Of a stretch of DNA of 64,000 nt, positions 2,738-16,800 are shown one piece after another. The notes below the pieces were generated by a model. It worked only from the letters and a program-made list of their open reading frames with translations. It was not told the origin of the DNA and did no database searches. The translations under genes and the position numbers were made by a program. Positions within the stretch are counted from its first letter, which is position 1, and every line of letters begins with the position of its first letter. Origin of the DNA: Escherichia virus TH43. The stretch lies in sequence record MT446414.1; one strand, 5' to 3'.

Positions 2738-2776
2738 AAGCCCCCTTCCTTTTCAGGTTGGGGGCTTTTCTCGTTT
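2738..2776. terminator. bidirectional intrinsic terminator between convergent gene blocks
   Basis: Stem AAGCCCCC / GGGGGCTT with 14-nt loop, T-run downstream on + and T-rich tract on the complement; lies between + genes ending 2543 and - gene ending 2775. Confidence 0.6.
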
Positions 2777-5700
2777 ACTCTTTAGCTCGAACTCTAACCC
2801 GGAGTTTAGCTTGACGCTTACTTCTCTCCAACTTGTCAGACAGAGAACCACGTTTGACTTTCAACTCTCCCTCGTCATTATACTTCTCCAAGAACTGTAA
2901 ATACTCTTGTCGAGTAGTTGTCTTGTAAGAAGGAATCTTAACATCAGGATTCTCTTCAATCACACGTCTAATCTTCGCTACATCATCCCGCCCTAAAAGT
3001 TTCCCTTTAGCTTGTTCAGCAGTAGAACCAAAGATTTTCTCCAGTGCTCTAGATTTGTTACCACCCGCTGAAGCAGCACCAAGTTTCGCAATAGCAGAGT
3101 AATCGTCAGCACTAAACCAAGCCACTGGATTATCTCCATATTGTTTCTTGTTCTCCGCAGCAGTTTGTAAAGCACGCACAAAGCGACGGTTATTACCAGC
3201 TTTGTCAGCACCATGAACCCTATCTAGAACTTCTGCTACACTAGCCAGCTCCTGCAAGTCTTTCCCTTCGATAAAAGCTTTCTCTGCTTTGTTAGCAAAG
3301 TCATCTTCCTGCTTCTTAATACTTTCCAGTATATCAGAGGAGGCTTGAGACCTTTCATCTTCCGGCAACGCCGAACGAACTTTCTCCATTTCCAACTCTT
3401 CATCCTGAAGTTTCTTCAACTCAGAATCTACCTTCCTAGCATCTTCGATAGCTTTCGAAGTATCTGCATCCACCTCTACCTTCCCATCCATATCACCAGT
3501 TGCCTTAGCAATATCTTTCTCGATTGGTGTCATCTTCTCAAAATCCTTAGCAAACTTTGAAATATCCGATTCAATACGAGAACGAGCATTCTGGTGCTCA
3601 GTAGGAGTCATAGGTTTCTCCAGAAGAGAGTAACGGTTATCCATATAAGAACCTGCAAAGATTTCTGCATCTTCTTTAGGAATCCCTTTATCCTCCATAG
3701 AACGCATCAGGCGCTTATGAATGTCATCACGTTGGCGTTGTATTGCCATGCGATCGTTCTCTGCTTCCTGAGCTTCTTTGAGCTTCTTGTCACGTTGTAC
3801 ACGGGAATCAATGTCGTATTTACGGTTCATCTCTTCCGCCTGTTCGTACATCTTATTCCACTTAGCTTCTCGAGCATCTTCTTCCGCTTCAGTGAGACGA
3901 CGCTTACGGTCAATGTAATCACTTTCTGCGTTGTGGATACGTTCGATAATACTACGGAAACGCTCCGGTGGCACAGGAGAGTTCTTATCGTGGTGAGCTG
4001 CTAACTGTTTCAGTGTACGACCTTCCTGAGACTCACGTACCGACTCTGGTAAATCTTTCAACAGGTTCTCCATCTCCGATTTCTGAGCCGCTATAGCTTC
4101 GAGAGACTGTCTTTCTGTCTCTACTGCTGCCTTGGCATCACTACGAGCTTTAGCCCTGTTACGGAGCGTCTCAAGACGTTCTTGACGTGCTTGCAAATGT
4201 TTAGCTGCTGCTTCGTACTGAGAGTTCTTATTAGCTTTGTTGAACATGTTAACTTCACGGTTATATGTGTTAATGAAGCCATCCCATATATCCTTCATCT
4301 GTCCCACTTCCAAAGCATCTTCCCTTCCAGCCTTCTCTGAAGCTTTAAACTTCCCATCTACAAAGTCTTCCATCAACTTACGCATAGCATCTTTTTGAGC
4401 TGGACGTAATGGCTCTGCATCAAGAAGTAAATTGATTTCGCTGTGTAACTCTTTCTTCTGGTCAACCAGCTTAGGAGCATCAGCTTTATCAAGCTTCTTA
4501 TTCTCTGCAAGAGCTTCTTCATACATCCTATTAAATTCATCATCACGTTGTTTCTGATACAGACGTTCAGACCTACGCTTCAGTGAGTCTAGACTAGTCA
4601 CGTTCCCACCAATACCTTTCTCCTCAGCACGTAATGCCTTGGTAGCAATATCAGAAGGTAGACCACGTTCCTTAACCCAATCAGCAAACGAAGAACGAAC
4701 ACGTTGTGACTTAGCAGCAGCAATACCCTGTTGAGAAGCAAGTTGGTTACGAGCCATCTCAGCATGACGTTCAGCATTGTTGGCTTGGTCTTCCTGACGG
4801 ATACGACGCATCAACTCTTTCGGGTCACCTTTATAAGAAAGGAAGTTCTCAGCTGTGGCTTTAGCCTTAGCACCTGCCGTATACAGAGAACGAGCAAAGC
4901 GATCTGCACGATCTTTAGTAGCTTGACGGGCAGCACTTGACATAGCAGCCAGACGCTCTATTCCAGTAGCTGGTTTAACAGGCTCAGGCTCAACCTCAGG
5001 AGCTTTAGGAGCACGGGTAGGTAATGGCTCGGCTTGAACGATAGGCTCCTCAGGAACGCTCTCAGCAGCCTTGCTAGCCTCTTCTGCTTCTTGACGTTTA
5101 CGAGCTTCTGCAACAGCACGACGCTGAGCAACTAAATCCCTTGCGGTAGTAACTGGTTCTTGTGGAACTGGCTCTGGAGTTGGTTCTTCCTGAACCCTGT
5201 TAGCTTCGGCTTCTTGACGTCTAGCTTCAGCTTCCTTCAAAGCACGTCTCTGTGCGACCAAATCACGAGCAGTTAAAGGAGAGGTTTCTGGAGAGGAAAT
5301 TTCTTCCGTCACAGTAGTAGCAGAAGGCTCCCGAACCGGTTCGATTTCCGTGTCATTTTGAGTCTTAAATTTAATGTCATCAACTTCAGGTTCTTTCTCC
5401 ATCGCAGCACGGGCTTCATCAGCCTGAGCACGAGCACGAGTTACTTCCATATCACTACGAGCAAGAGAACGAATAGCTTCACTGTTAGCAGCCTGCTGGC
5501 TTTCACGTTGAGAGCGAGCACGGTCAGAACGGAAACGGTTAAGAACATGCTTAGCAGCACCAAGAGGATTCTTAATCAGAACTGGAGGAGCAGCTTCTTT
5601 AAAACCATCAGCAGTCAGAGAAGTCCAACCACGGTCTTGGTTACTCATTAACTTAGCTGTGTTATTCAGAGTGAAAGCATCTTGGATTGGGTTGAAACCT

Positions 5701-7193
5701 TCAGGCATTCCTTTAAGTTTCTTCAAACCACCAATAGCAGTTTTCATTTCTGGAGATACATTATCAGCCAGTTTCTGAAGCTCTGTAGCTTTCTCTATGA
5801 AGTTATTAAAGTCTTCACCATCACGAGCTTTGAATCGATTAGCTTCGTTATAGAAAGTTTTATAAGCATCAATGAAATCACGATCTGCTTGGGTACGATT
5901 CTTAATGTCCATAGCACTACCAGTAAAATCACCACTGGCACGAGCAGCTGTTAATTCACGATCAAGGTTATCCAGAACATCAGACAAAGATTTAGTGTTG
6001 TCTTTTGTATAATCAGCCATTGCATCTTTCATTGCCACAGCTTGTTTCTGGTTATGTTCGTTGTCTGCGTTAGCTTTACCTTGCTTCTTATTAGGAGCAG
6101 CAAGAGGATTTAAACCCGGAACATTAGAACGATCTTCCAGAATAGTAGCAGCCTTCTCGGCACGACTTTGATCAGTATTAAGGATACGCTGAGCAGCAGG
6201 AGAGTCCATAGCCACAGCATCAGTAACACGGAAACCGTTCTCATCGAGGAGATTAAGAGCAGAAGCTGTGTTAGCGTTATCAGCTTTAGAGTAAGCCTCT
6301 CTTAGTTCGTCTGCATTTTTAGCTGAGCGAATAGCTTCATCTTCAGCGGCAATGTCAGTCTTAACGTGTTCTGGAGTACGGTCAAAGACTTGAGGACTAG
6401 GACGACTTATCAATCCATGAACCCCACCAATAGCCCCACCGTAAGCAGCACCCATCGCACCTTCTTCTACAGCACCTTCAATGATATTAGCAAGAGTAGT
6501 GTCATCACCATATTTGTTCTGTGCTTCAGCAGCACCTACAAGAGCACCACCTTTAGCACCAGCCACTGCGTTAGATGCTACACTCTGACCAACACGACCT
6601 AGGGTAGTAGAAGCAGTGCCTGTCATCCCCGGAAGAATCTTCTGAGCTGCAAAGTTAGCACCACCAACTAAACCAGCATCAAGAACAGACTTCTCTTCAC
6701 CCTCTTCTGGAGTTTGGTCTGCATAAGCTCTACCTGTTTCACGAGCTGCAATAACAGCAGCAGCTACAGCTGGGTTAGCAACCGTAAGACCAATATCAGC
6801 GGCAACGCCAGCATACTGACCTACAGATTTACCTACACCATCTTCGATTTGAGAGAGACGTTCTTCTAGTAAGTTTTTAGAGTTGTCTTGAATACGCTTA
6901 CCGTAACTTGTCTGTGTACCAGCTAGATTTTCTCCAATCTCAACTAATCCACCAATACCTCTAGCAGCACTGGCTGCAATGTTTGCACCACCTGATTGAA
7001 TAGCGTTGGACACACCTTGGGCAAAATCACCAACCAACCCCGGTTGCTCTTCTTGTTTAGGAGCTGGAGCAGCCTCAGGAATCGTTCCACCCGCTGCTTT
7101 ATACTGTTCTCGCATCTGAGACTGTTGCTCAGGGGAGGCATTCAAATACGCAGGGCTTTTAGAAGCTTCTTCCCACGGTTTTAAGTTCGCCAT
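2775..7193 (-). CDS. large virion protein, 1472 aa (tape-measure-like or internal ejection protein)
   Basis: Very long Ala/Glu/Lys/Arg-rich coiled-coil-type protein with internal tandem repeat (ARDLVAQRRA... twice); last gene of the structural operon. Confidence 0.6.
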   Translation of the reverse strand: MANLKPWEEASKSPAYLNASPEQQSQMREQYKAAGGTIPEAAPAPKQEEQPGLVGDFAQGVSNAIQSGGANIAASAARGIGGLVEIGENLAGTQTSYGKRIQDNSKNLLEERLSQIEDGVGKSVGQYAGVAADIGLTVANPAVAAAVIAARETGRAYADQTPEEGEEKSVLDAGLVGGANFAAQKILPGMTGTASTTLGRVGQSVASNAVAGAKGGALVGAAEAQNKYGDDTTLANIIEGAVEEGAMGAAYGGAIGGVHGLISRPSPQVFDRTPEHVKTDIAAEDEAIRSAKNADELREAYSKADNANTASALNLLDENGFRVTDAVAMDSPAAQRILNTDQSRAEKAATILEDRSNVPGLNPLAAPNKKQGKANADNEHNQKQAVAMKDAMADYTKDNTKSLSDVLDNLDRELTAARASGDFTGSAMDIKNRTQADRDFIDAYKTFYNEANRFKARDGEDFNNFIEKATELQKLADNVSPEMKTAIGGLKKLKGMPEGFNPIQDAFTLNNTAKLMSNQDRGWTSLTADGFKEAAPPVLIKNPLGAAKHVLNRFRSDRARSQRESQQAANSEAIRSLARSDMEVTRARAQADEARAAMEKEPEVDDIKFKTQNDTEIEPVREPSATTVTEEISSPETSPLTARDLVAQRRALKEAEARRQEAEANRVQEEPTPEPVPQEPVTTARDLVAQRRAVAEARKRQEAEEASKAAESVPEEPIVQAEPLPTRAPKAPEVEPEPVKPATGIERLAAMSSAARQATKDRADRFARSLYTAGAKAKATAENFLSYKGDPKELMRRIRQEDQANNAERHAEMARNQLASQQGIAAAKSQRVRSSFADWVKERGLPSDIATKALRAEEKGIGGNVTSLDSLKRRSERLYQKQRDDEFNRMYEEALAENKKLDKADAPKLVDQKKELHSEINLLLDAEPLRPAQKDAMRKLMEDFVDGKFKASEKAGREDALEVGQMKDIWDGFINTYNREVNMFNKANKNSQYEAAAKHLQARQERLETLRNRAKARSDAKAAVETERQSLEAIAAQKSEMENLLKDLPESVRESQEGRTLKQLAAHHDKNSPVPPERFRSIIERIHNAESDYIDRKRRLTEAEEDAREAKWNKMYEQAEEMNRKYDIDSRVQRDKKLKEAQEAENDRMAIQRQRDDIHKRLMRSMEDKGIPKEDAEIFAGSYMDNRYSLLEKPMTPTEHQNARSRIESDISKFAKDFEKMTPIEKDIAKATGDMDGKVEVDADTSKAIEDARKVDSELKKLQDEELEMEKVRSALPEDERSQASSDILESIKKQEDDFANKAEKAFIEGKDLQELASVAEVLDRVHGADKAGNNRRFVRALQTAAENKKQYGDNPVAWFSADDYSAIAKLGAASAGGNKSRALEKIFGSTAEQAKGKLLGRDDVAKIRRVIEENPDVKIPSYKTTTRQEYLQFLEKYNDEGELKVKRGSLSDKLERSKRQAKLRVRVRAKE

Positions 7194-7258
7194 AATTTCT
7201 CCTTATAAATAAAAATGTCCTACCTCCTATATACATTATAAGAGATAGGACTTAGGTC

Positions 7259-8890
7259 TTACTGAGTCATCCAATCAGTGTTAGAAGACAAAGCACCGTT
7301 AAGTTTAGGATTGGTTGCTGAACCACCAACAGCTGCTTCAGACTCTGCTTCGAATACACCGAGAGGGTCATAGAAACCAGCAGAAGGAATAGCTCGGTTA
7401 ACAAGAGCAGTTGCACGTTTCTTGTCCATACCAGAACCAACATAAGCTTCAATAGTTGCTTTCTTAGAATCTTTAACACCTTTCTCAGCAGAAGTAGCAC
7501 CGACCGTCGCTTGTTTACGAGCATAAGACAGAGCAGCATCAGATGGACGATAACCAGCTTTAAGAGACCAAGTGTTACCTACCTTAACAAGAATGGATGG
7601 GTCTTCTGCGAAGTGTGACAAGTCATCAGCTTGCAGAGAACGGTTAGCTCCAATCTCAGCTCTTGCGGAGTTCATAATAGCCTGCATGTAAGCAGAACGA
7701 GCAGTCTGATAATCACCATCCTTAACTGCTTTGTCTGCCAAATCCAAATCTTTATGAGACTGGTTAAACAGTCCTGCCTTCTCTGCCCACTGTTTAGCAA
7801 CCGTACCTTCAGCAGTGTTCTGAGCAAGACGAACTTCTTTCGGGTTAAAGTTAAAACTTTGAGCAGCTTGTTCTGCACGGTCTGCCTTAACTTGATCACG
7901 ATAACCAATCAACTCTTTCTGTTTCTCAAACTGAGCATCAGCACGTTGTTCAGCAGCACGACGAGTTTCAGCAGCACGTTCCCGCATCGAATTCTCTTGA
8001 ATCTGTTGACGTCTGTCCCACTCTTGATTAGCACGAGCTTCGTCTTGAGCGGCTAGAGCCATCTTCTCTTGAGGACTAATCTGACGCATCTTCAGAAGAG
8101 AAGGATCACCAGCAGCTACAGCAGCAGCTACAGAATCCTGAGAGTAACCTTGTTCGATCAGGTTATCACGGTTCAGTTCTAATTGTTGTTTAGCTTCATC
8201 CTGAGATGCCATACCAGAGCCAATCTGGAATGCTTCAATCGGAGATTTACCAGACATAATAGAAAGACCCACACCCATCAATCCTGTATAGAAACTAGAG
8301 TTTTGATAGAAAGGTTGTTTCTGCATAGTCTTCCAAGCTTCTGCTGGATTCTTGGACTGTGCAACTTTAAGAATATCCTGATTCACACGTTCCTGATCAG
8401 CAGCACGAGTAGCACCACCCATACCTTCACCCTGAGGAACACCAGAAGCGATAGTATTCATGACACCTTGGGCCTGTTGTACTTGCTCAGGGGCAAACTC
8501 TTTATCTGACTCTTCAATTGGTTTAGCAGGAGCTGTAACCGGAAGAGGGTTAGAAGCAGGAGCTACGTCAGCAGGCATCATAGAGCCTTCATCACCCGGA
8601 TTAATGCCAGCATCAATACCAGCCAAACTAGTAGGAGTAGAAATACCCTGCTGTTCATAAAGACGTTGCTTGAATCCCGGATTCATCATAGCTTCTTGGT
8701 CAGCCTGTGCTTGTTCGACTGTAGCTCCTAAGACAGCAGGAAGAGCTGGACGCTGATACATAGATAAGTCAGCTGCTGGACCAGCAGGTCTGGACATGTA
8801 AGGAGAGGCCGTAACCCCTCTCTGACGATCACCATAAATCTGATTTCGCGGGTCTTGACTACGAAGATACGCGTAAGATGTTTGTTGCAT
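7259..8890 (-). CDS. virion structural protein, 543 aa
   Basis: Long ORF in the structural operon; Ala/Gln-rich; no specific motif. Confidence 0.5.
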   Translation of the reverse strand: MQQTSYAYLRSQDPRNQIYGDRQRGVTASPYMSRPAGPAADLSMYQRPALPAVLGATVEQAQADQEAMMNPGFKQRLYEQQGISTPTSLAGIDAGINPGDEGSMMPADVAPASNPLPVTAPAKPIEESDKEFAPEQVQQAQGVMNTIASGVPQGEGMGGATRAADQERVNQDILKVAQSKNPAEAWKTMQKQPFYQNSSFYTGLMGVGLSIMSGKSPIEAFQIGSGMASQDEAKQQLELNRDNLIEQGYSQDSVAAAVAAGDPSLLKMRQISPQEKMALAAQDEARANQEWDRRQQIQENSMRERAAETRRAAEQRADAQFEKQKELIGYRDQVKADRAEQAAQSFNFNPKEVRLAQNTAEGTVAKQWAEKAGLFNQSHKDLDLADKAVKDGDYQTARSAYMQAIMNSARAEIGANRSLQADDLSHFAEDPSILVKVGNTWSLKAGYRPSDAALSYARKQATVGATSAEKGVKDSKKATIEAYVGSGMDKKRATALVNRAIPSAGFYDPLGVFEAESEAAVGGSATNPKLNGALSSNTDWMTQ

Positions 8891-8904
8891 AATTAATCTC
8901 CTAA

Positions 8905-9873
8905 TTAAGAACTAGCCAACCCACCGATAACCCCACCTGCTAACGCACCCCAAGGTCCGAAGGAAGAGCCTGCTGCTGCGCCACTCATAGCACCACCTAA
9001 GAAACCACTCCCACCACCTGAAACCTTATTAGTAGTTGTAGTACCTAAAGCACCGTTGAGAACACCAGCTGCACCGAGTTGGTTGTTAATGTCTTGCCAG
9101 CCCCAATTGGCTGCATTCTGAGCATTTGTATAAGCATTATCCAGACCAGCTTGTTGCTGTTGCTGTTGCTGCAAACCTGCTGCCCACTGATTCTGCATCT
9201 GCTGCTGGGATAGTTGACCTGCTTGGGTTCCTAGATTAGATAAAGAACTACCAATTCCAGAGAGTCCACTTAGAGCAGAAGCTTGAGATTGTCTATTACC
9301 TGACAGAATGCTTTGAGCTTGATTAAGAGCTGAATCATAAGCACTGTTGGTAATATTGGTTGCTGTGTTCTGCATCTGATTAAGAGCATCACCTTGAGCA
9401 AAAGATTTAGCCATTCTAGCACCTGAACCTTGCTGTCCAGCATATTGCTGAGCCAACTGAGGTAGAGCATTACGAGCCAAATCCTGTTGTGTCTGTTCAT
9501 TGTTAGCTGTAATAGCAGCCTGAACAGCTTCATCGTCATAGAGCTGACCAGCCAAGGCACCAATCTGTTCACCAGTAATTTGACCAGAGTTAGATAGGTT
9601 GTTATATCCTGAATTGGCTTGGTCGAGATACCCCAGACCAGATTGAGCAGCATCCATATATTGAGAAGACAGAGCACCAAGTGCTCCTGATTGAGAAAGG
9701 TTATTCAGAGCCTCAGTTTGGTTCTGATTGAAACCTACATTATCTCTATAAACATAATCGCCTGAACTTGTGTTATTCACCTGATTAACCAGTTGGTCAA
9801 TATAGGATTGAATATATTCAGGTCTTGTCATTTTGGAAGTAGAAGAGCTACTCCCTCCACCGAATAAAGCCAT
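8905..9873 (-). CDS. Gln/Asn/Gly-rich virion protein, paralog 1
   Basis: Low-complexity Q/N/S/G-rich protein with Gly-rich hydrophobic C-terminus; N-terminus MALFGGGSS matches neighbour MSLFGSASK. Confidence 0.5.
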   Translation of the reverse strand: MALFGGGSSSSTSKMTRPEYIQSYIDQLVNQVNNTSSGDYVYRDNVGFNQNQTEALNNLSQSGALGALSSQYMDAAQSGLGYLDQANSGYNNLSNSGQITGEQIGALAGQLYDDEAVQAAITANNEQTQQDLARNALPQLAQQYAGQQGSGARMAKSFAQGDALNQMQNTATNITNSAYDSALNQAQSILSGNRQSQASALSGLSGIGSSLSNLGTQAGQLSQQQMQNQWAAGLQQQQQQQAGLDNAYTNAQNAANWGWQDINNQLGAAGVLNGALGTTTTNKVSGGGSGFLGGAMSGAAAGSSFGPWGALAGGVIGGLASS

Positions 9874-9882
9874 AAACCCTCC

Positions 9883-10932
9883 TTAGTTTGCCCCGAAGGC
9901 ACCTAGAACACCACCCAAAATATTACTCCCAGCTGTAGACAACCAGTTATTCTGATTACTCTGATTGGACAGGTTAGACCCACCGATCATAGGACCAGCC
10001 ATACCAGATTGACCACCCGAAGCATTATAAGAGTTCCAAGCATTCTGAGTTTGTTGACTAGGAGTGAAAGCACCCAATCTACCAGCAATACCTAGACCAG
10101 TCACTCCAGCACCGAGAATTTGCTGGGATGTGTTAGGAGAGGCTCCTTTATTAGTAATTGTATAACCAGCCATAGGGCTTACTGAGTTTAATACATTTAA
10201 TTGGTTGTTGAGTTGATTCCATCCGTACTGTTGACTACCAATAGCATTCTGCCAATTAAGGTCAGCTTGAGTCTGATCTTGCTGCTGCTGTAAGTTACCA
10301 GCAGTAAGTTGATTCTGGATAGCCTGTTGAGCTGCCTGAGTGCCTTGAGAGCCGAGGTTAAGGTTTTGTCCAGCCAACCCTGTTTGTGCGTTCAGAAGGC
10401 CTTGCTGGAAGGAACTGTTAGACCTTAAAGCGTCAACACCTAAGTTCTTACCAGAGATAGTACGAGACAGGTTGGTATTAGCAGAATTCAAAGCAGCACC
10501 CTGAGCAGCAGCCCTACGAAGAGACCCTGAATCAGAACCATTACCAAGAGATACGTTAGATGCAGCCTTTCCTGTTGCCTGAGCCAGTGCAGAACTGTTT
10601 AGACCAGAACTGAACTTGTTAACATCACTAGCACTGATTGAACTATTAGCCAAGTCTTGATATCTCTGAGCCAAAGTGTTCATCTGATCCAGACCTTGTT
10701 GTGTCCGAGGAGTATACATATTACTCAGTTGATTCAAGGTGGAAGAGTTAGCTAAGTTAGATAGAGCAGCTTGTTGGTTAGGGTTAAGGCCAGCTAGTTG
10801 CTGAGAAATAAATCCAGCATCATTGCTGTTCATATTCTGAGCATTAGCCACAATCTGTTTTAACAGAGCATCAACCTGAGAGGATGGAGCCACTGTAGTT
10901 TTAGTCTTAGAAGCAGACCCGAATAAAGACAT
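9883..10932 (-). CDS. Gln/Asn/Gly-rich virion protein, paralog 2
   Basis: Same composition and termini as 8905-9873; tandem paralog. Confidence 0.5.
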   Translation of the reverse strand: MSLFGSASKTKTTVAPSSQVDALLKQIVANAQNMNSNDAGFISQQLAGLNPNQQAALSNLANSSTLNQLSNMYTPRTQQGLDQMNTLAQRYQDLANSSISASDVNKFSSGLNSSALAQATGKAASNVSLGNGSDSGSLRRAAAQGAALNSANTNLSRTISGKNLGVDALRSNSSFQQGLLNAQTGLAGQNLNLGSQGTQAAQQAIQNQLTAGNLQQQQDQTQADLNWQNAIGSQQYGWNQLNNQLNVLNSVSPMAGYTITNKGASPNTSQQILGAGVTGLGIAGRLGAFTPSQQTQNAWNSYNASGGQSGMAGPMIGGSNLSNQSNQNNWLSTAGSNILGGVLGAFGAN

Positions 10933-10944
10933 ACGTCCTCCTTA

Positions 10945-11739
10945 TTATTTAATAACACCAACACTTGCCAAACGTCTAAGAACGGCTTGTGTCTGTGGGC
11001 TGTATTGAGAACCTGCTTGAGTTGGTGCATGTGCTCTCTGAACTGTTTGAGACTTAGGAGCCTTTCCTGCTAACATCGCAGCAGCAGCTAGTGCAGCATT
11101 ACCGAAGTTCTGTTGTGGTTTCTGATCTTCCCCAGCCTCTTCTGCATCGTCAGAATAGAACTCAGCAGGAGAACCTCCTAGAGCGCCTGTCTTAGCAGCA
11201 GCAATCTCAGCTTGAGTAGGAGCATTAGCAGCACCTTCTTTAGTAACCAACTCAGGAGAGAATTGGTTCACTGGCTGTGCTGATTGTAAAGCCCCAACAG
11301 GATTAGCCACCTGACCAGCAGCATCATTAGCTGTATAGAAAGGAAGGAAGTTCTTATTGTTCATAGAATCCAAGGCTTGAGGTGTAAACCCCTTCTTACC
11401 AGCGAACATTTGTTTTGCTCCACCAGTCCCTTCAGAGTATCCCACCATAGCTTTCTTCACATCACCATTAAAAGCTTTCAAATTATCACGAATATATCTA
11501 GCACCCATGTCAATGTTTTTGGCTGGGTCTAAACGATCTTCTAGTTTGTATCCATAGTCTTTAGCCAACCCTTTACTAATTTGCATTAAACCTACTGGCC
11601 CTGTACCTGATGCAACAGAAGGTCTACCACTAGACTCCCTCTGAATGACCGCATGGATAAGAGCAGCAGGAATGCCATACTTCTTAGAAGCTTGCTGGAC
11701 CATAGGGTCAAGCTCGGACACTCCCATGCGTATTGTCAT
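10945..11739 (-). CDS. lytic transglycosylase (SLT domain) virion protein
   Basis: SLT-like motif ESSGRPSVASGTGPVGLMQI near the N-terminus. Confidence 0.65.
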   Translation of the reverse strand: MTIRMGVSELDPMVQQASKKYGIPAALIHAVIQRESSGRPSVASGTGPVGLMQISKGLAKDYGYKLEDRLDPAKNIDMGARYIRDNLKAFNGDVKKAMVGYSEGTGGAKQMFAGKKGFTPQALDSMNNKNFLPFYTANDAAGQVANPVGALQSAQPVNQFSPELVTKEGAANAPTQAEIAAAKTGALGGSPAEFYSDDAEEAGEDQKPQQNFGNAALAAAAMLAGKAPKSQTVQRAHAPTQAGSQYSPQTQAVLRRLASVGVIK

Positions 11740-11751
11740 AAATCCTCCTTA

Positions 11752-12783
11752 TTATAGACCCGCAAAAACTTTAGCCGCATTTATTACCGGAATTGATATA
11801 TTAATGGCAGAGTTAGAACCTAGGTCATAATTGGTAGACCACTGGAACATATACCTACCATAGCCAGTACCTATAGAAGATCCTGTCATTACATGAGATC
11901 TCATTTGCTGATAGTACCAACCACTACCACTACCCCGAATAGCACCTACACCAGAGGAGAGTGGTATCATTGGGTATGCCATACCAGTATCACCTCCAGC
12001 AGAACCTACAAAATTATCAACAGTAAAAGGTGTTCTATTAGTAGAGAACACACACTGAGTTGTTCCGGGAGAATAAATATTTAATCCACCATTGTGCTCA
12101 GGAACTCCTGCTCCATTACAGAATACTGCGACCCTAGCAAATACAGAACCGCCTTCGTTAGAGTTTCCGTTATTATAAGATCTGTTCTGATATACACGGA
12201 TCACTCTATCTCCAGATGTATAAGAAAGGCCAACCCCTCCGTCAGACCAGTTAGCAAAGACTACAGCATTAGGCATATAAAACCCACCAATGTCAGGAAT
12301 CTGTAAAGCGCCGTTTATAGTCCCTTGCCAAGCCCAAATACACTGACCAACAACACCAGCATCAGAGATAGAGAAGTAATCAGCTGTATTAGAGAAGGTA
12401 ATACCATAATTTCTGTCAGCTCTTGGGTAGATTTGGTAAACGTTAAACCCACAATCAAACAGGGGGTTACTTCCGGGATTCTGGTTTAAGTTAACTCTGA
12501 AAGAGGAGTTATTCTCTACATAAATGTTATTAACACAATAAACATCAGGAACCAAGTTAGGAGGAACTTCCCACTGCCAGCACAGAGACCCAGTAGGGAC
12601 GATAATTATCTGACCGCTACCATCCCAACCATTAATAGGGAAAGATCTCCCACCCCCGTTAAAGTTGAAACTCCCACTAATAGAGTTCTTAATCTGAGGG
12701 AATGTACTCCCACTATCAATAAACAAAGGAGCCGGAGAGGCTGGCCCCGGTCCTACAGGTTGACACCATATTCCATATGCCAT
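11752..12783 (-). CDS. structural protein (tail-associated), 343 aa
   Basis: ORF in the tail module; no specific motif. Confidence 0.45.
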   Translation of the reverse strand: MAYGIWCQPVGPGPASPAPLFIDSGSTFPQIKNSISGSFNFNGGGRSFPINGWDGSGQIIIVPTGSLCWQWEVPPNLVPDVYCVNNIYVENNSSFRVNLNQNPGSNPLFDCGFNVYQIYPRADRNYGITFSNTADYFSISDAGVVGQCIWAWQGTINGALQIPDIGGFYMPNAVVFANWSDGGVGLSYTSGDRVIRVYQNRSYNNGNSNEGGSVFARVAVFCNGAGVPEHNGGLNIYSPGTTQCVFSTNRTPFTVDNFVGSAGGDTGMAYPMIPLSSGVGAIRGSGSGWYYQQMRSHVMTGSSIGTGYGRYMFQWSTNYDLGSNSAINISIPVINAAKVFAGL

Positions 12784-12784
12784 A

Positions 12785-13807
12785 TTACCAACTCCCTATT
12801 CTAATTCTCAAAGCACCACCACCGTCATAGAAATCAATCCTGTTACCATTCATCCACAGCTGTGCCCCACCTGTACCACCCATAACAAAATCCCCACCAA
12901 CTGTAAGTCTCCAGTTAGAACCACTCATAGAGCCAGCAGTAATCTTGTTAGCAGTAAGGTTAGCAATCTGTCCATCTTGAATCCACACGTTATCAATCTG
13001 AGCAAACTGGATTCGAGCATTAGCAATCTGAGCAGTTGTAATGTTGACATTCTTGATATCAGCGAATTCCATTCTAGCTCTACCACCTTCAAAAACAAAA
13101 GGAGTATTACCAGAGTTGCCATCACCAACAATAAACTTATTAGCCGTTACTTGGAATTGGCTGTTCGTGCCGTTGTTAGTTAGTTTAACACCAGCGTACT
13201 GACCATTAACAGAAGAGTTGACACCCCATGTAGCTTCGTAACTATCTAGTCTCATGTATTGAGAAAGAGAGTTCTGTACAGTAGTAACCTTACCATCCAC
13301 TTCGGCAATCTGAGTACCTTGAGCAGTAAGTTCTGTCTGAACTAAAGCAATCTCTTGTCCTTGTTCATTCACAATACCTTGTACTGTCTGAATCTTTAAA
13401 TCATTACCTTCAATAGAAGTTTTGAAACCTGCAACTGTACCATCTAGTTTAGTCGGAGGGTTAGTGCTTCTATCCCAAATATCTTCAGTAGAAAGATTAC
13501 CCATCTGTGTTTGGATATCAGCAATAGCTGTTTCAATCTCTGTAGTAATTCGGTTCTCAAGTTCATCAAACTGTAGGTTCATTGCATTAAGAGCTTTAAT
13601 ACGAACATCTATCTCTTCATGAATCTCGTCGATTGCTTGGAACATCTGGTTAGTTGCTGTACTGACTTTCTGTAATTCATCATAAACTGCAACGTTGTAT
13701 TTATCCGTATCCTCTACATTGTTTAGAAACCCAACGTTGTAGGGAAGTGTGGTGTTGTTTCTTCCAGTATTCTTACGAAAACCTCCAGCACCCATAAGTA
13801 CCTCCAA
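12785..13807 (-). CDS. tail fibre-like protein, 340 aa
   Basis: N-terminal coiled-coil segment followed by Gly/Asn-rich C-terminal region; tail-module position. Confidence 0.45.
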   Translation of the reverse strand: MEVLMGAGGFRKNTGRNNTTLPYNVGFLNNVEDTDKYNVAVYDELQKVSTATNQMFQAIDEIHEEIDVRIKALNAMNLQFDELENRITTEIETAIADIQTQMGNLSTEDIWDRSTNPPTKLDGTVAGFKTSIEGNDLKIQTVQGIVNEQGQEIALVQTELTAQGTQIAEVDGKVTTVQNSLSQYMRLDSYEATWGVNSSVNGQYAGVKLTNNGTNSQFQVTANKFIVGDGNSGNTPFVFEGGRARMEFADIKNVNITTAQIANARIQFAQIDNVWIQDGQIANLTANKITAGSMSGSNWRLTVGGDFVMGGTGGAQLWMNGNRIDFYDGGGALRIRIGSW

Positions 13808-13844
13808 TTATAAACAATAAAAGGGAGCCGAAGCTCCCTAGTTG

Positions 13845-16800
13845 TTATCTTCGACCGCCAACAGCAAACTCTATGGTTAAACCATTCATAGACGCATTAC
13901 TGTTAACATCATTATCTATAACATTATAGAATAGGTATGGATGGTTCAGTCTGACTGCTACGTGACGATCTACACCAACCCTAAACTCTTTAGTAGAATG
14001 GTTGTGTCCATACTCGTTAGAGAATTGACTACCACCTGCTTCAAAAGTATAAGTCCCTGTTCCTGTTACTTGAGGTCTAAATCGGTTAATGTGTTTCTGA
14101 TTCCATTCATTAGTGACGTTATCAAAATCAATCCCCGTTCTCTCTAGTCTCATTTCCAGAGGCTTCTCTATAACCACATCATTTGTTCTGTCATAGATAT
14201 AATCCAAAGCTCCTATATCAACTTGGTAGAATCCTTTCAAGAAAGAACCTATGATTGTAACTCTCTGACGGAAGTTAGTTGCATCTTTTCTCCACACCAG
14301 TTTGTCAATCGAAGGGTCATCCCAAGTGATCTCTTGGAAATCAGCCCAGATAGGACCACGTTCCAGAACCGGAGGATCAACCAGACCAATACAGTAAGAG
14401 TAAGGAATCGTACGGAAAGACCAAGTATCGAACTCATAATTCCATACTGCTGCTTTAGTACAGGCAAAACTTTCCTTAGGCTCACCCGGACCTACATAAA
14501 GAACCCATACTTCTTTCTTATCCTGATGAAGATGAACTCGTGTAGCAATTGGGTTCACCAGACAAATCTCATTAATGAGCATGTTCTTCACTCGGTTAGA
14601 AGCAATAGATTTCTTAGAAGCACCATTGTGCAGAATGACGTCGTTCTGAGTTACCACAAAGTGACCACCTTCAACTTCCACCACACACTCAGGAGCAAGT
14701 ATCCCTGAATCATTAAACAGCTTTTTAAACATCAAAGGCTGATATGTGTTGTTAGTAGGAGAGCCGATATAAGTTTCAAACTCAGTGTAAACGAACAGAT
14801 AATCTTTCAGAGGAAGAACATCTAACAAACTACCATTAGAGTCAGCCAAATCAATATATCCTGCATAACCATTCTCAAGAGCTTCTGTCTGTCCTACGAT
14901 GTTAGCTGCTAGGTCAGAACTCACTGCTCGGTCATATGCATAATCATCCCAAAGCTGAGGGGCTTTGTTTTCCTCTGCAAAGTTAGACCAACGCAAACGA
15001 AGAGGGTAGTGAGTAGTAACACCAGAGGCATTAGACTCTCTCATATTCAGAGCAAACAGTCTATTGTTAAAAGCTCTCACTCGTTCACATTTCCAGTTAT
15101 ACTTCTTAACAGAAGGATTACCATCTGCATCAACAACCGTCTGCTCACCCCATCCCGGAAGGTCAGTGAAGTATTCAGAATCGAATTCCTTAACCTGAGG
15201 AGTTTCGTAGTGAGTAGTTGCTACTGCACAGTTAGAGATGATCGCATGATACCAAGGATAATCTTCAAACGCATCATAGTCTTTCTGAACCATCTGGCTT
15301 ACAGTACAAGTCACTTTAACCTCACCCTTACGAATAGCAGTAAGTTTCAAAGTTGAGTTAGTTGTAGAAGTAGTAGAAACATAACCACTCTTATCAACTG
15401 TCCACTTGTAAGTATAGCTTCCAGTAGGAGATGCTGTAGCTGTGATAACAATCTCTTCACCTACATCAAGAGAGGCATCAATAACATCAAGAGTAACTCC
15501 AGTCAAAGGTGGATCATTAGCAAGCATTGCTGCTCTACCAAAACCTTCCAAGTCCATGACGTTAGAGTAGTCGTAGAAGTTGTTTCCTTCCGCCATCCCT
15601 GTTGTATCAATGCCAATTGTATCAGCGTCAAAATAAGTAACTTCTTCTGACTCAACAATTGGTTCTTCTACAGGAGCTTCTGTAGTGATAGTCATTGCTG
15701 ACATAGCCCTACTTGCCAGACGAGAAGATAAATCAACACGTACAGTACAAACTGCTGAACGACCTCCTTCCGCTGTAACTGCTGTAATCTCTGTATACCC
15801 CGCAAGCAATCCAGTTATTGTAGCTTCTGTACCTGTACCACTTACTGTAGCAATGTTGGTGTTAGAAGAAGTCCAAGTGATCGTTTGGTTGGGTGCGTTA
15901 GCTGGACTAACTGTTGCAGTTAAGATGTACTGAGTACCACGACTCATTTGAATATCTGTCTGACTTAATGTGATGCTATCAATTTGAGGTATTGCTGTTA
16001 CTGTACAAGATGCAGTCTTTGTTCCATTATCAGCAGTTATAGTTACCTGTCCTTCTCCAAGAGCTGTAAGAACAACTGTCTTTGTATTAGCATTAGGAGA
16101 AACAGAAACTAAGGATGGGTTAGAGGAAGACCAAGTTACAGACGGTTTGCCTGTAATTGCTGTAAGGGTTGATGTACCACCTTTACGCACAGTCAAAGTG
16201 TCTTGGCTCAAATAGATACCTGAATCACTATCAAGGATGTTAACTGCAATCTGAGCTGAGATAGATTCATCAGATGTGCTCACTGTCACAACTAAATTAC
16301 CTTCAACAGACTTAGAAGTTAGGGTAGCCTTCTTGGAGTCAGTAGGGTCAACTTCAATACTACCATAAGAAGAGTTGCTTACTTCCCAAACTAGATTAGC
16401 ATTTTGAGCATCTGTAGGGGTGACTTCAACTTCGAGAATCTTGGTCTGGTTAAAATTCATAGATACAGAAGTCTCTTTAGGAACAATATTTGAGACTACT
16501 GGATAAATCTTAATTGTCGCTGATGCTTTCTTTGTCGCTGTAGCAACCTTACGGCTGATATCAGTTAAACTCTCGTCGGTAAGTTTATACAGTTTCTTAT
16601 CTGTACCTACCACAAGAAAGCTATTACCTGCGCTATAATAATCGAAAGGCATTGAAAGGAATGAGAGAGGAGTCAGATCTTTATCTTCGTCTACATAAGA
16701 AAGAGGGGCATTGCCCCCCGTCTTAAAGACTCTCTGCTCAACAAACCGAGCATTAATAGCGTTAGTGAAAGCATTTGGTGCTAAGTCAGTAGGTGCTTGG

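Follow-up and report, generated by a model that had tools for sequence, protein, structure and literature searches.

The channel through which a short-tailed phage passes its DNA across the Gram-negative envelope is only partly understood, least of all in its small membrane subunit. In T7, gp14 (internal virion protein B) is the smallest ejection protein and is encoded first in the ejection-gene cluster; it is helical, inserts into membranes and forms the outer-membrane pore (PMC8954989). In P22, a classic gp14-like ejection protein annotated as "DNA transfer protein", gp7 (PF25688, phrog_598), is encoded between the needle gene and the genes for the larger ejection proteins. A candidate subunit comes from the Bruynoghevirus Pa223, whose gp56 (313 aa) is found in virions by mass spectrometry and is called oversized by the authors; it has been proposed to form an outer-membrane channel with predicted C-terminal transmembrane helices, a role that is a prediction (MemBrain, AlphaFold3 nonamer) and not an experimental result (Pa223 preprint).

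The closest described system is that of coliphage SU10. SU10 gp20-24 were found in virions by mass spectrometry (PMC4281155), and a later study reports all five in virions and none in genome-release intermediates (PMC9509320, Suppl. Table 1). The external tail density resolves none of the five. Within this set, gp20, an SLT lytic transglycosylase, behaves as an ejection protein, and gp21 and gp22 leave the particle upon release of the tail needle (PMC9509320).

A tandem pair in the ejection-gene cluster

We analyzed a 64,000-nucleotide stretch of DNA from Escherichia virus TH43 (MT446414.1), referred to here as the window. The window is that of a Kuravirus-like coliphage and is 98.8% identical to TH34 and Bas88, in which the counterparts of both genes considered here already carry the annotation "DNA ejection protein". 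A sequence-only reading of the window had singled out two adjacent genes for proteins of 322 and 349 aa, next to an SLT transglycosylase, as encoding internal or ejection proteins of the virion. We recovered both ORFs at exactly these lengths and positions on the minus strand, separated by 9 nt, and a Pfam match identifies the SLT gene directly upstream of them. Downstream of the pair lie ORFs of first 543 and then 1472 aa. In order of coordinates, the cluster comprises:

2775-7193, minus strand: highly charged ejection protein of 1472 aa, orthologous to SU10 gp24 and placed where a gp16-like large subunit would be expected (phrog_14629)
7259-8890, minus strand: ejection protein of 543 aa, orthologous to SU10 gp23 and placed where a gp15-like periplasmic-tunnel subunit would be expected (phrog_12130)
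8905-9873, minus strand: 322-aa ejection protein, "A-type" paralog; ORF orthologous to SU10 gp22 ("DNA injection protein", SU10_022; phrog_4287)
9883-10932, minus strand: 349-aa ejection protein, "B-type" paralog; ORF orthologous to SU10 gp21 (79% identical to SU10_021; phrog_4287)
10945-11739, minus strand: SLT lytic transglycosylase, an ejected peptidoglycan hydrolase, SU10 gp20 ortholog (Pfam SLT, E 4e-24)

Judged from size and gene order only, the 543-aa protein may be the tunnel subunit; the 1472-aa protein has a hydrophobic, G/A-rich N-terminal region. Both members of the pair match the phrog_4287 "DNA ejection protein" profile over their full length, the 322-aa protein at E 6e-100 and the 349-aa protein at E 2e-102. 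Because the two genes occur together in about 98 phage records and show a dN/dS of 0.09-0.12 against SU10, we conclude from comparative sequence evidence that they are genuine genes under conservation, as opposed to ORFs arising by chance.

The gene order is common to SU10, running needle, gp19, SLT, gp21, gp22, gp23, gp24. The 322-aa protein aligns with SU10 gp22, also 322 aa long, without gaps at 82% identity, and SU10 gp21 measures 350 aa against 349 aa here. We found no difference of substance from gp21 and gp22 of SU10, or from the orthologs in phiEco32, Bas88 and TH34, all of which belong to the same phage group. By homology, the pair is the gp21/gp22 "ejection" proteins of phiEco32/SU10-type coliphages, already known and annotated. 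The sequence-only reading had made its assignment hinge on presence in purified virions; the SU10 orthologs are detected there by mass spectrometry and are missing after genome release. By analogy with this close relative, for which packaging and release with the genome have been demonstrated, the TH43 proteins would share the head with the packaged DNA and would exit once the tail needle comes off.

Composition, motifs and predicted fold

BLASTP aligns the 349-aa and 322-aa proteins at 30% identity over 285 residues (E 2e-10), identifying them as paralogs. Their N-termini are alike, as had been noticed from the letters, with an MxLFG start that no other ORF in the 64-kb window carries. This start is conserved as M-x-LFG-G/S in all close homologs, and in distant family members the N-terminal motif takes the form MG..GG...TT. 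We also considered the opposite net charge of the paralogs (+5 vs -9) as a sign of heteromer formation and rejected it, the opposition not being consistently conserved in distant pairs. The main features within the two proteins are:

9847-9873, minus strand: N-terminal motif MALFGGGSS of the 322-aa protein, a conserved start
10906-10932, minus strand: N-terminal motif MSLFGSASK of the 349-aa protein, a conserved start
9049-9426, minus strand: Q/N-rich long helix predicted by AlphaFold2, residues 150-275 of the 322-aa protein, Q7 run included
8908-9024, minus strand: Gly-rich hydrophobic "glycine-zipper" C-terminus, residues 284-322 of the 322-aa protein (39 residues)
10066-10119, minus strand: residues 272-289 of the 349-aa protein, ILGAGVTGLGIAGRLGAF, the first of its two Gly-rich hydrophobic segments, located by hydropathy
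9886-9942, minus strand: residues 331-349 of the 349-aa protein, the second such segment, forming its tail (KD19 1.03 at residue 330)

Set against the 46 non-overlapping window ORFs of at least 100 aa, the composition of the pair is as extreme as first described. Q+N+S+G+A makes up 0.63 of the 322-aa protein and 0.62 of the 349-aa protein (window mean 0.33, sd 0.084), placing them as the top two outliers, and K+R+D+E accounts for 7-8% of each, compared with a window mean of 23%. Neither protein contains Cys or His. The combined Q+N content is 24-26% overall and reaches 42-47% in the richest 60-residue window of each protein, which in the 322-aa protein begins at residue 217. Poly-Q runs are present in both, as Q7 at residues 235-241 and Q3 at residue 223 of the 322-aa protein and Q4 at residue 215 of the 349-aa protein. 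This Q/N/S/G/A-rich composition may resemble that of flagellar axial proteins.

The Gly-rich hydrophobic C-termini that had been described are likewise present, as one segment in the 322-aa protein and two in the 349-aa protein. In the former, residues 284-322 (VSGGGSGFLGGAMSGAAAGSSFGPWGALAGGVIGGLASS) include no charged, Q, N or H residue and show a recurring small-xxx-small spacing. In the latter, hydropathy peaks at residue 272 (KD19 1.29), and the second tail is conserved in homologs of at least 54% identity and variable or absent in more distant ones. All of these segments are uncharged and only moderately hydrophobic, with a mean KD of 0.8-1.3. Together with the (G)LFGG N-terminus, the Gly-rich C-terminus may resemble viral fusion peptides.

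We modeled both proteins with AlphaFold2. The monomer model of the 322-aa protein, built from a 50-sequence alignment and informative on the fold but not on channel formation, has a mean pLDDT of 76.5 and predicts a helical hairpin, with helices over residues ~20-275 at 10-residue block means of about 70-94. A single helix, H150-275, holds the Q/N-rich region, with block means of 75-92. For the 349-aa protein, a shallow 17-sequence alignment gave a low-confidence model (pLDDT 46.5). Foldseek searches with the 322-aa model returned weak matches, at E about 1e-2, to entries named "DNA transfer protein". Sequence and profile searches of the PDB returned nothing significant, the best matches being Rab-43 (E 0.8) and a CdiA tRNase (E 0.1), both probably compositional.

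Comparison with small ejection proteins of other phages

LUZ24 gp53 (313 aa, phrog_7477), which we take as the ortholog of Pa223 gp56 by length and synteny, is a remote homolog of the pair. It matches phrog_4287 (E 2e-10) and, across residues 12-307, an HMM that we built locally for the family (E 2.6e-19); only such broader profiles showed the relationship, and an hhalign comparison of the single gp53 sequence with the 17-sequence alignment showed no homology. LUZ24 gp53 is similar in size to the TH43 proteins and, as here, has a Q/N-rich helical body followed by poly-Gly and a Gly-rich hydrophobic C-terminus. Its gene lies upstream of those for ejection proteins of roughly 500 and roughly 1000 aa. 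In contrast to the tandem pair of TH43, Bruynoghevirus has a single copy, the gp53 N-terminus lacks MxLFG, and no SLT gene adjoins gp53. BLASTP found no similarity between the 543-aa protein and LUZ24 gp51.

P22 gp7 is a small protein of the same design (QNSGA 0.58, KRDE 0.10) with a similar Gly-rich C-terminus, so the earlier remark that such a composition is unusual for structural proteins was overstated. Its final residues, ...GGGASGAIAGAGLAKLIGSSTPWGAAIGGGIGLLGSLF, are similar to those with which the 322-aa protein ends, ...GSSFGPWGALAGGVIGGL. Scored against the A-type C-terminal HMM, the gp7 tail gives 27.9 bits, compared with 10.8 +/- 3.6 for composition-matched shuffles, 3 of 5000 of which reached its score; the C-terminal pattern of the 322-aa protein is common to LUZ24 gp53 and P22 gp7 beyond composition. 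Homology to gp7 is not significant by BLASTP (E 0.42) or hhalign (probability 2.6%), and no link was found with Pfam or PHROG. Similarly, searches with a 183-sequence HMM, BLASTP, PHROGs and profile-profile comparison revealed no significant homology to P22 gp7, gp20 and gp16 or to T7 gp13-16. At 229 aa, gp7 is shorter than the 322-aa and 349-aa proteins, and its record notes that a host protease removes 20 N-terminal residues, a processing step not known here. T7 gp14, at 196 aa, has no sequence similarity to the pair and is more charged (KRDE 0.20) and less Q/N/G-rich.

What the TH43 cluster does have in common with these systems is its layout. The order SLT, pair, 543-aa and 1472-aa genes mirrors the gp14-gp15-gp16 order of T7, where gp16 carries the lysin as its N-terminal domain, in contrast to the separate SLT gene here (PMC8954989 for T7). 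The pair heads the ejection-gene cluster and is followed by mid-size and large ejection genes, as in the gp14/gp7 class. In length, the two proteins fall outside the about 180-240 aa of that class, being about 1.6 times longer.

A model for the pair in DNA ejection

We consider it probable that the two proteins are anciently duplicated small ejectosome subunits that insert into a membrane and build a trans-envelope DNA channel. Starting from packaging and exit from the particle, which are established for SU10, we infer their roles as membrane and channel subunits as follows. The pair would be the counterpart of the small membrane-inserting ejectosome subunit (T7 gp14 / P22 gp7 / Pa223 gp56 class). 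Its proteins would cross the narrow tail channel largely unfolded, and the Cys-free, low-charge, Q/N/S/A-rich body would then refold unaided into long helical hairpins. These hairpins would oligomerize, possibly as a hetero-oligomer of the two paralogs, and the Gly-rich hydrophobic C-termini would enter one of the host membranes, with the outer one the likeliest. The SU10-type nozzle would thereby be extended into a channel, which the co-ejected SLT lysin and the 543-aa and 1472-aa proteins would complete through periplasm and inner membrane. The odd composition would then be adaptive, suited to transit in the unfolded state, refolding without chaperones and the packing of helices, with no prion or condensate property.

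The predicted helix of 126 residues, about 19 nm long if straight, is nearer to a periplasm-spanning element than to a membrane plug, and could instead place these ejection proteins in the periplasmic tube or in an inner-membrane pore. The different C-termini of the paralogs, with one Gly-rich segment in the 322-aa protein and two in the 349-aa protein, would also fit a division of the two between outer and inner membranes. Moreover, the SU10 tail is already lengthened by a 28-nm nozzle of tail proteins, and an outer-membrane pore may be less needed. We nonetheless judge an inner or divided location unlikely: the 543-aa and 1472-aa proteins are, by gene position and size, what one would expect of the tunnel and inner-membrane subunits, the 1472-aa protein brings its own hydrophobic N-terminal region, and the remote Bruynoghevirus homolog has been assigned to the outer membrane, by prediction only.

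Sequence constraint and the low-complexity composition

The composition of the pair had at first been called prion-like or condensate-like. Its Q+N content, poly-Q runs and very low charge might indeed describe a condensate-forming, low-complexity core in the capsid that organizes DNA or cargo and forms no defined channel; gp21 and gp22 are moreover not resolved in the SU10 capsid reconstruction (PMC9509320), and the shallow-alignment model of the 349-aa protein is of low confidence. The model from the deeper alignment is nevertheless helical, with pLDDT block means up to 94, and it places the Q/N-rich region, supposedly disordered, inside helix 150-275. Specific W, N, Q and G positions do not vary among the homologs, even those only 42% identical, and the 322-aa protein shows no indels relative to SU10 gp22. 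Since well-scored helices (pLDDT 70-94), invariant columns, a gap-free SU10 alignment and purifying selection (dN/dS about 0.1) coincide, the constraint pattern is, as far as modeling can tell, that of a folded, position-constrained protein and not of a drifting disordered low-complexity region. Family members are also fused to enzymatic and structural domains, and in SU10 the proteins exit the capsid on genome release. We therefore regard a condensate-forming core as very improbable and retain the ejectosome-subunit model.

Relatives and domain fusions in PHROG 4287

Four contigs encode proteins only 42-53% identical to the TH43 pair, and these keep the tandem arrangement, the composition (QNSGA 0.59-0.63) and the whole five-gene module. 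In a further relative of 1309 aa (P0102), the family domain is fused to an SLT domain, and the locus has an SU10-type adaptor gene; judged by sequence, the fusion argues for a functional linkage of the family domain to the SLT lysin. A Peptidase_S74 domain is present in 30 of the 192 family representatives and, in about 17 of these 30, is internal to a protein of 850-1356 aa. The S74 domain, or a long extension, begins in relatives right after the equivalent of the first Gly-rich segment, and the equivalent of the C-terminal segment weakly matches Pfam Gly-zipper families. Both window proteins lack S74 (Ser-x4-Lys dyad) in Pfam searches up to E 10.

One relative (P0097) weakly matches tail-fibre PHROGs via its own S74 region, and one GenBank record names a homolog "neck appendage protein". 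A literature search found no description of S74 processing in ejection or internal virion proteins, and the paper on Proteus phage Privateer makes no mention of ejection or injection proteins.

S74 is an intramolecular-chaperone domain typical of trimeric fibres and spikes, and it could, with the GenBank label and the P0097 matches, suggest external fibre-like trimeric tail or neck appendages shed at infection in place of internal head proteins, a reading we hold to be highly unlikely: SU10 tail cryo-EM is explained by portal, adaptor, nozzle, needle, and long and short fibres, with no built residues, symmetry or copy number listed for gp21/gp22, which are lost along with the SLT lysin and two large internal proteins (PMC9509320), and the window proteins are free of S74, with a predicted helical hairpin and no beta-helix fibre.

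Taking the ejectosome-subunit model further, we tentatively propose, as a possibility and not as the likelier case, that the Kuravirus pair, the Bruynoghevirus gp56-type proteins, many proteins of uncultured podophages and possibly P22 gp7 form one superfamily of small ejectosome subunits, with a self-cleaving S74 form as the ancestral or alternative state. Their joint design would be a Q/N-rich helical hairpin with a C-terminal glycine-zipper membrane anchor. As part of the same proposal, the S74 forms would be ejection polyproteins whose self-cleavage yields one gp21/22-like fragment and one large fragment. The kuravirus proteins would represent a "pre-cut" version that duplication has turned into a hetero-oligomeric channel.

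Implications

For this phage, our analysis adds little that is new, as the genes are annotated already and experiments have established the ejection role of their orthologs. Its broader use is as a set of testable handles on the small membrane subunit: the gp21/gp22 pair is linked by homology to the candidate outer-membrane channel of Bruynoghevirus, its design is common to P22 gp7, and some relatives are fused to the SLT lysin or to self-cleaving S74 domains. Overall, the pair suggests a general rule by which proteins that undergo unfolded transit of a narrow channel and chaperone-free refolding may contain no Cys, carry few charges and abound in Q, N, S, A and G.

A paralogous pair with extreme composition

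An earlier sequence-only reading picked out two adjacent low-complexity ORFs beside an SLT transglycosylase gene, and its coordinates for both match ours exactly. The genes of this region are:

12785-13807, minus strand: tail-needle gene, a 340-aa mechanical ORF with a TTG start
11752-12783, minus strand: 343-aa ORF (Pfam DUF6453; phrog_1265 "membrane protein"; 7 Cys)
Directly upstream of the pair: SLT transglycosylase gene (Pfam SLT, E 4e-24)
9883-10932, minus strand: B349, 349-aa ORF
8905-9873, minus strand: A322, 322-aa ORF
7259-8890, minus strand: 543-aa gene, ortholog of SU10 gp23
2775-7193, minus strand: 1472-aa gene, ejection protein

A322 and B349 lie 9 nt apart and are paralogs (30% identity over 285 residues, E 2e-10). 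Gln, Asn, Ser, Gly and Ala (QNSGA) make up 62-63% of each, compared with a mean of 33% (sd 8.4%) among 46 non-overlapping window ORFs of at least 100 aa, and charged residues account for 7-8%, versus 23% across window ORFs. This bias is far beyond chance. Poly-Q runs reach Q7 in A322 and Q4 in B349, and the C-terminal ends of both are uncharged, Gly-rich and moderately hydrophobic: K, R, D, E, Q, N and H are all missing from residues 284-322 of A322, and B349 carries two Gly-rich uncharged segments (residues 272-289 and 331-349). Among window ORFs, only these two begin with MxLFG. The composition and the SLT neighbor noted in the sequence-only reading are both borne out.

The pair very probably encodes ejection proteins

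Over the 6 kb that surround the pair (window 7000-13000), identity is 98.8% with Escherichia virus TH34, 98.7% with StefiGeyer_Bas88 and ~77-89% with other phiEco32/SU10-type (Kuravirus-like) coliphages. Bas88 annotates both genes as "DNA ejection protein", and both proteins match the PHROG 4287 family of that name (each ~E 1e-100). B349 shares 79% identity with SU10_021 (350 aa). For A322 the counterpart is SU10_022, a "putative DNA injection protein" of 322 aa, with 82% identity in a gapless alignment. Window and SU10 share the gene order needle, gp19, SLT gp20, gp21, gp22, gp23, gp24.

Proteomic analysis of SU10 virions identified gp20-24 (PMC4281155). In a cryo-EM study these proteins, named ejection (core) proteins, were present in virions and absent from genome-release intermediates, and could not be resolved in the capsid density (PMC9509320); both gp21 and gp22 are entered in its Supplementary Table 1 as virion components detected by MS, without model, symmetry or copy number. 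Since both were detected, the refutation proposed in the sequence-only reading, absence from virions, has already been looked for in this close relative, and the orthologs were present. Its guess of an ejection role agrees with these data, and A322 and B349 are very probably ejection proteins. This functional reading is already established and annotated, and is not new.

Several features of the neighboring genes deserve mention. The tail-needle ORF has an ATG four codons downstream of its TTG, giving 336 aa, and the Bas88 and SU10 annotations are shorter. The 343-aa ORF lies between the needle and SLT genes; because its ortholog SU10 gp19 was undetected in virions (PMC9509320 Suppl. Table 1), its product may be nonstructural, acting as an assembly factor. 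The 543-aa protein has the module's highest dN/dS versus SU10 (0.26; neighbors 0.06-0.15) and lowest identity (71%). The 1472-aa protein is 33% K/R/D/E, with a hydrophobic, Gly/Ala-rich N-terminal region (KD19 1.71 near residue 130) and two copies of an internal direct repeat, TARDLVAQRRA..EA..RQEAE, flanked on either side by Pro/Glu-rich linkers. "Liver stage antigen" and "nuclear pore complex" labels on its orthologs (GenBank, SU10) are composition artifacts.

A folded helical protein is favored over a prion-like one

The composition had also been read as prion-like or condensate-like. When homologs as distant as 42% identity are aligned, certain columns of W, N, Q, G and L stay invariant or nearly so, with conserved blocks such as NQxxAL, QNxLxAGN, NWQNAxGxQQxxWNQLNNxLN and MAGYT, and dN/dS versus SU10 (0.09 for B349, 0.12 for A322) is similar to that of adjoining structural genes. 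AlphaFold2 modeled A322 from a 50-sequence alignment as all-helical (mean pLDDT 76.5; ten-residue block means ~70-94 over residues ~20-270), with low confidence confined to the first 13 residues and the Gly-rich tail (279-322). The B349 model, from 17 sequences, is poor (pLDDT 46.5) yet helical over residues 18-251. In the A322 model the Q/N-rich stretch falls within one long helix (residues 150-275), a placement that would still be compatible with aggregation-prone behavior, although the signature is not that of a disordered low-complexity domain. Together with the gapless SU10 alignment, these data favor a folded helical protein and leave the prion or condensate reading unsupported.

A candidate membrane subunit of the ejectosome

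In podophages, ejection proteins follow an order of small membrane subunit (T7 gp14, P22 gp7), mid-size periplasmic tunnel and large inner-membrane subunit (PMC8954989). The window fits this scheme with the pair, the 543-aa and the 1472-aa proteins, plus a separate lysin gene upstream; two features depart from it, the duplication of the small subunit and its size, ~1.6 times the usual. The pair shows no similarity to T7 gp14, and searches of solved structures gave no informative match.

A remote homolog is gp53 (313 aa) of the Bruynoghevirus LUZ24, which matches phrog_4287 (E 2e-10) and our local 183-sequence HMM (E 2.6e-19, residues 12-307); LUZ24 gp51 and gp50 have 505 and 1055 aa. By length and synteny, gp53 appears to correspond to Pa223 gp56, a virion protein proposed in a preprint as a gp14-like outer-membrane channel of the ejectosome, on the basis of an AlphaFold3 nonamer and of predicted TM helices (residues 278-291 and 296-311 among them) (10.1101/2025.06.11.659172).

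We lean, if only slightly, toward A322 and B349 being small membrane-inserting, channel-forming ejectosome subunits. In SU10 the orthologs are carried inside the head and exit it at genome release (PMC9509320). The Cys-free, low-charge, Q/N/S/A/G-rich body would suit transit of the tail channel as an extended chain, and would then refold spontaneously into long helical hairpins that oligomerize. By analogy to T7 gp14 and the Pa223 gp56 proposal, the Gly-rich C-terminal segments would insert in one of the host's membranes, with the outer membrane the likeliest, prolonging the nozzle formed by SU10-type tails; the SLT lysin and the 543-aa and 1472-aa proteins would complete the remaining path.

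Some relatives carry S74 or SLT domains

Searching 1.84 billion representative proteins with a profile yielded 302 relatives (E up to 1e-3). Kuravirus-like contigs of 82-90 kb, whose proteins are 42-53% identical to A322/B349, retain the MGLFGG start, a QNSGA of 0.59-0.63 and the full module (SLT, B349-like, A322-like, ~565 aa, ~1350 aa). Because module, start motif and composition are all kept at this divergence, we infer that the duplication is old and maintained.

More distant relatives take two forms. In proteins of ~400-430 aa, the Gly-rich segment runs directly into a Peptidase_S74 domain (endosialidase intramolecular chaperone) whose Ser-x4-Lys motif is intact (in P0069, ...GGLMGAF followed by SDATLK); P0078 passes the Pfam gathering score. 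In proteins of 850-2000 aa, the family domain is N-terminal. By local HMM, 30 of 192 representatives (P0097, P0100, P0124 and P0142 among them) carry an S74-like domain, whose SDxxxK start always directly follows the hydrophobic Gly-rich segment at ~residue 280-350. In ~17 of these 30 (850-1356 aa) the domain is internal, with 500-1000 more residues after it, which suggests self-cleaving precursors or ejection polyproteins among the relatives. A322 and B349 have no S74 domain; the end of A322 and of the first Gly-rich segment of B349 coincide with the predicted S74 cleavage-site position. Papers describing an S74 domain in an ejection or internal virion protein did not turn up in our literature search.

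In one relative, P0102 (1309 aa), a gp21/22-type domain is fused to an SLT domain, and the protein also contains a Gly-rich segment and long linkers rich in G/A/P:

10001-13930 of locus L007 (GCA_900291815.1, contig OLLV01000322.1): P0102 fusion gene

With an SU10-type adaptor gene (PF24175) upstream and a 1190-aa protein downstream, this phage-like locus seems to come from a podophage or prophage distantly resembling SU10, in which the ejection module is fused. The fusion links the family in function to the lysin and large ejection proteins.

A design shared with P22 gp7

P22 gp7 (229 aa; QNSGA 0.58; K/R/D/E 0.10) is strikingly similar in design to the pair, ending in ...GGGASGAIAGAGLAKLIGSSTPWGAAIGGGIGLLGSLF where A322 ends in ...GGGSGFLGGAMSGAAAGSSFGPWGALAGGVIGGLASS. 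Tests of homology to gp7 were negative by BLASTP (E 0.42), Pfam PF25688, PHROGs and profile-profile comparison (probability 2.6%). When an HMM of A322-type C-termini is run on the gp7 tail, the score is 27.9 bits, versus 10.8 +/- 3.6 for composition-matched shuffles, 3 of 5000 of which reached the real score. This score reflects only a common Gly-spacing pattern, which convergence explains as well as homology does. Foldseek matches of the A322 model among predicted viral structures (E 1e-5 to 1e-3) were uncultured-phage proteins, several labeled as carrying intramolecular-chaperone or peptidoglycan-binding domains; "DNA transfer protein" entries matched only weakly (E ~1e-2).

What is modestly new here concerns the relatives and not the window locus: the homology linking the pair's family to a candidate channel protein of Bruynoghevirus, the family members that carry S74 or are fused to SLT, and the design common to P22 gp7 and the pair.
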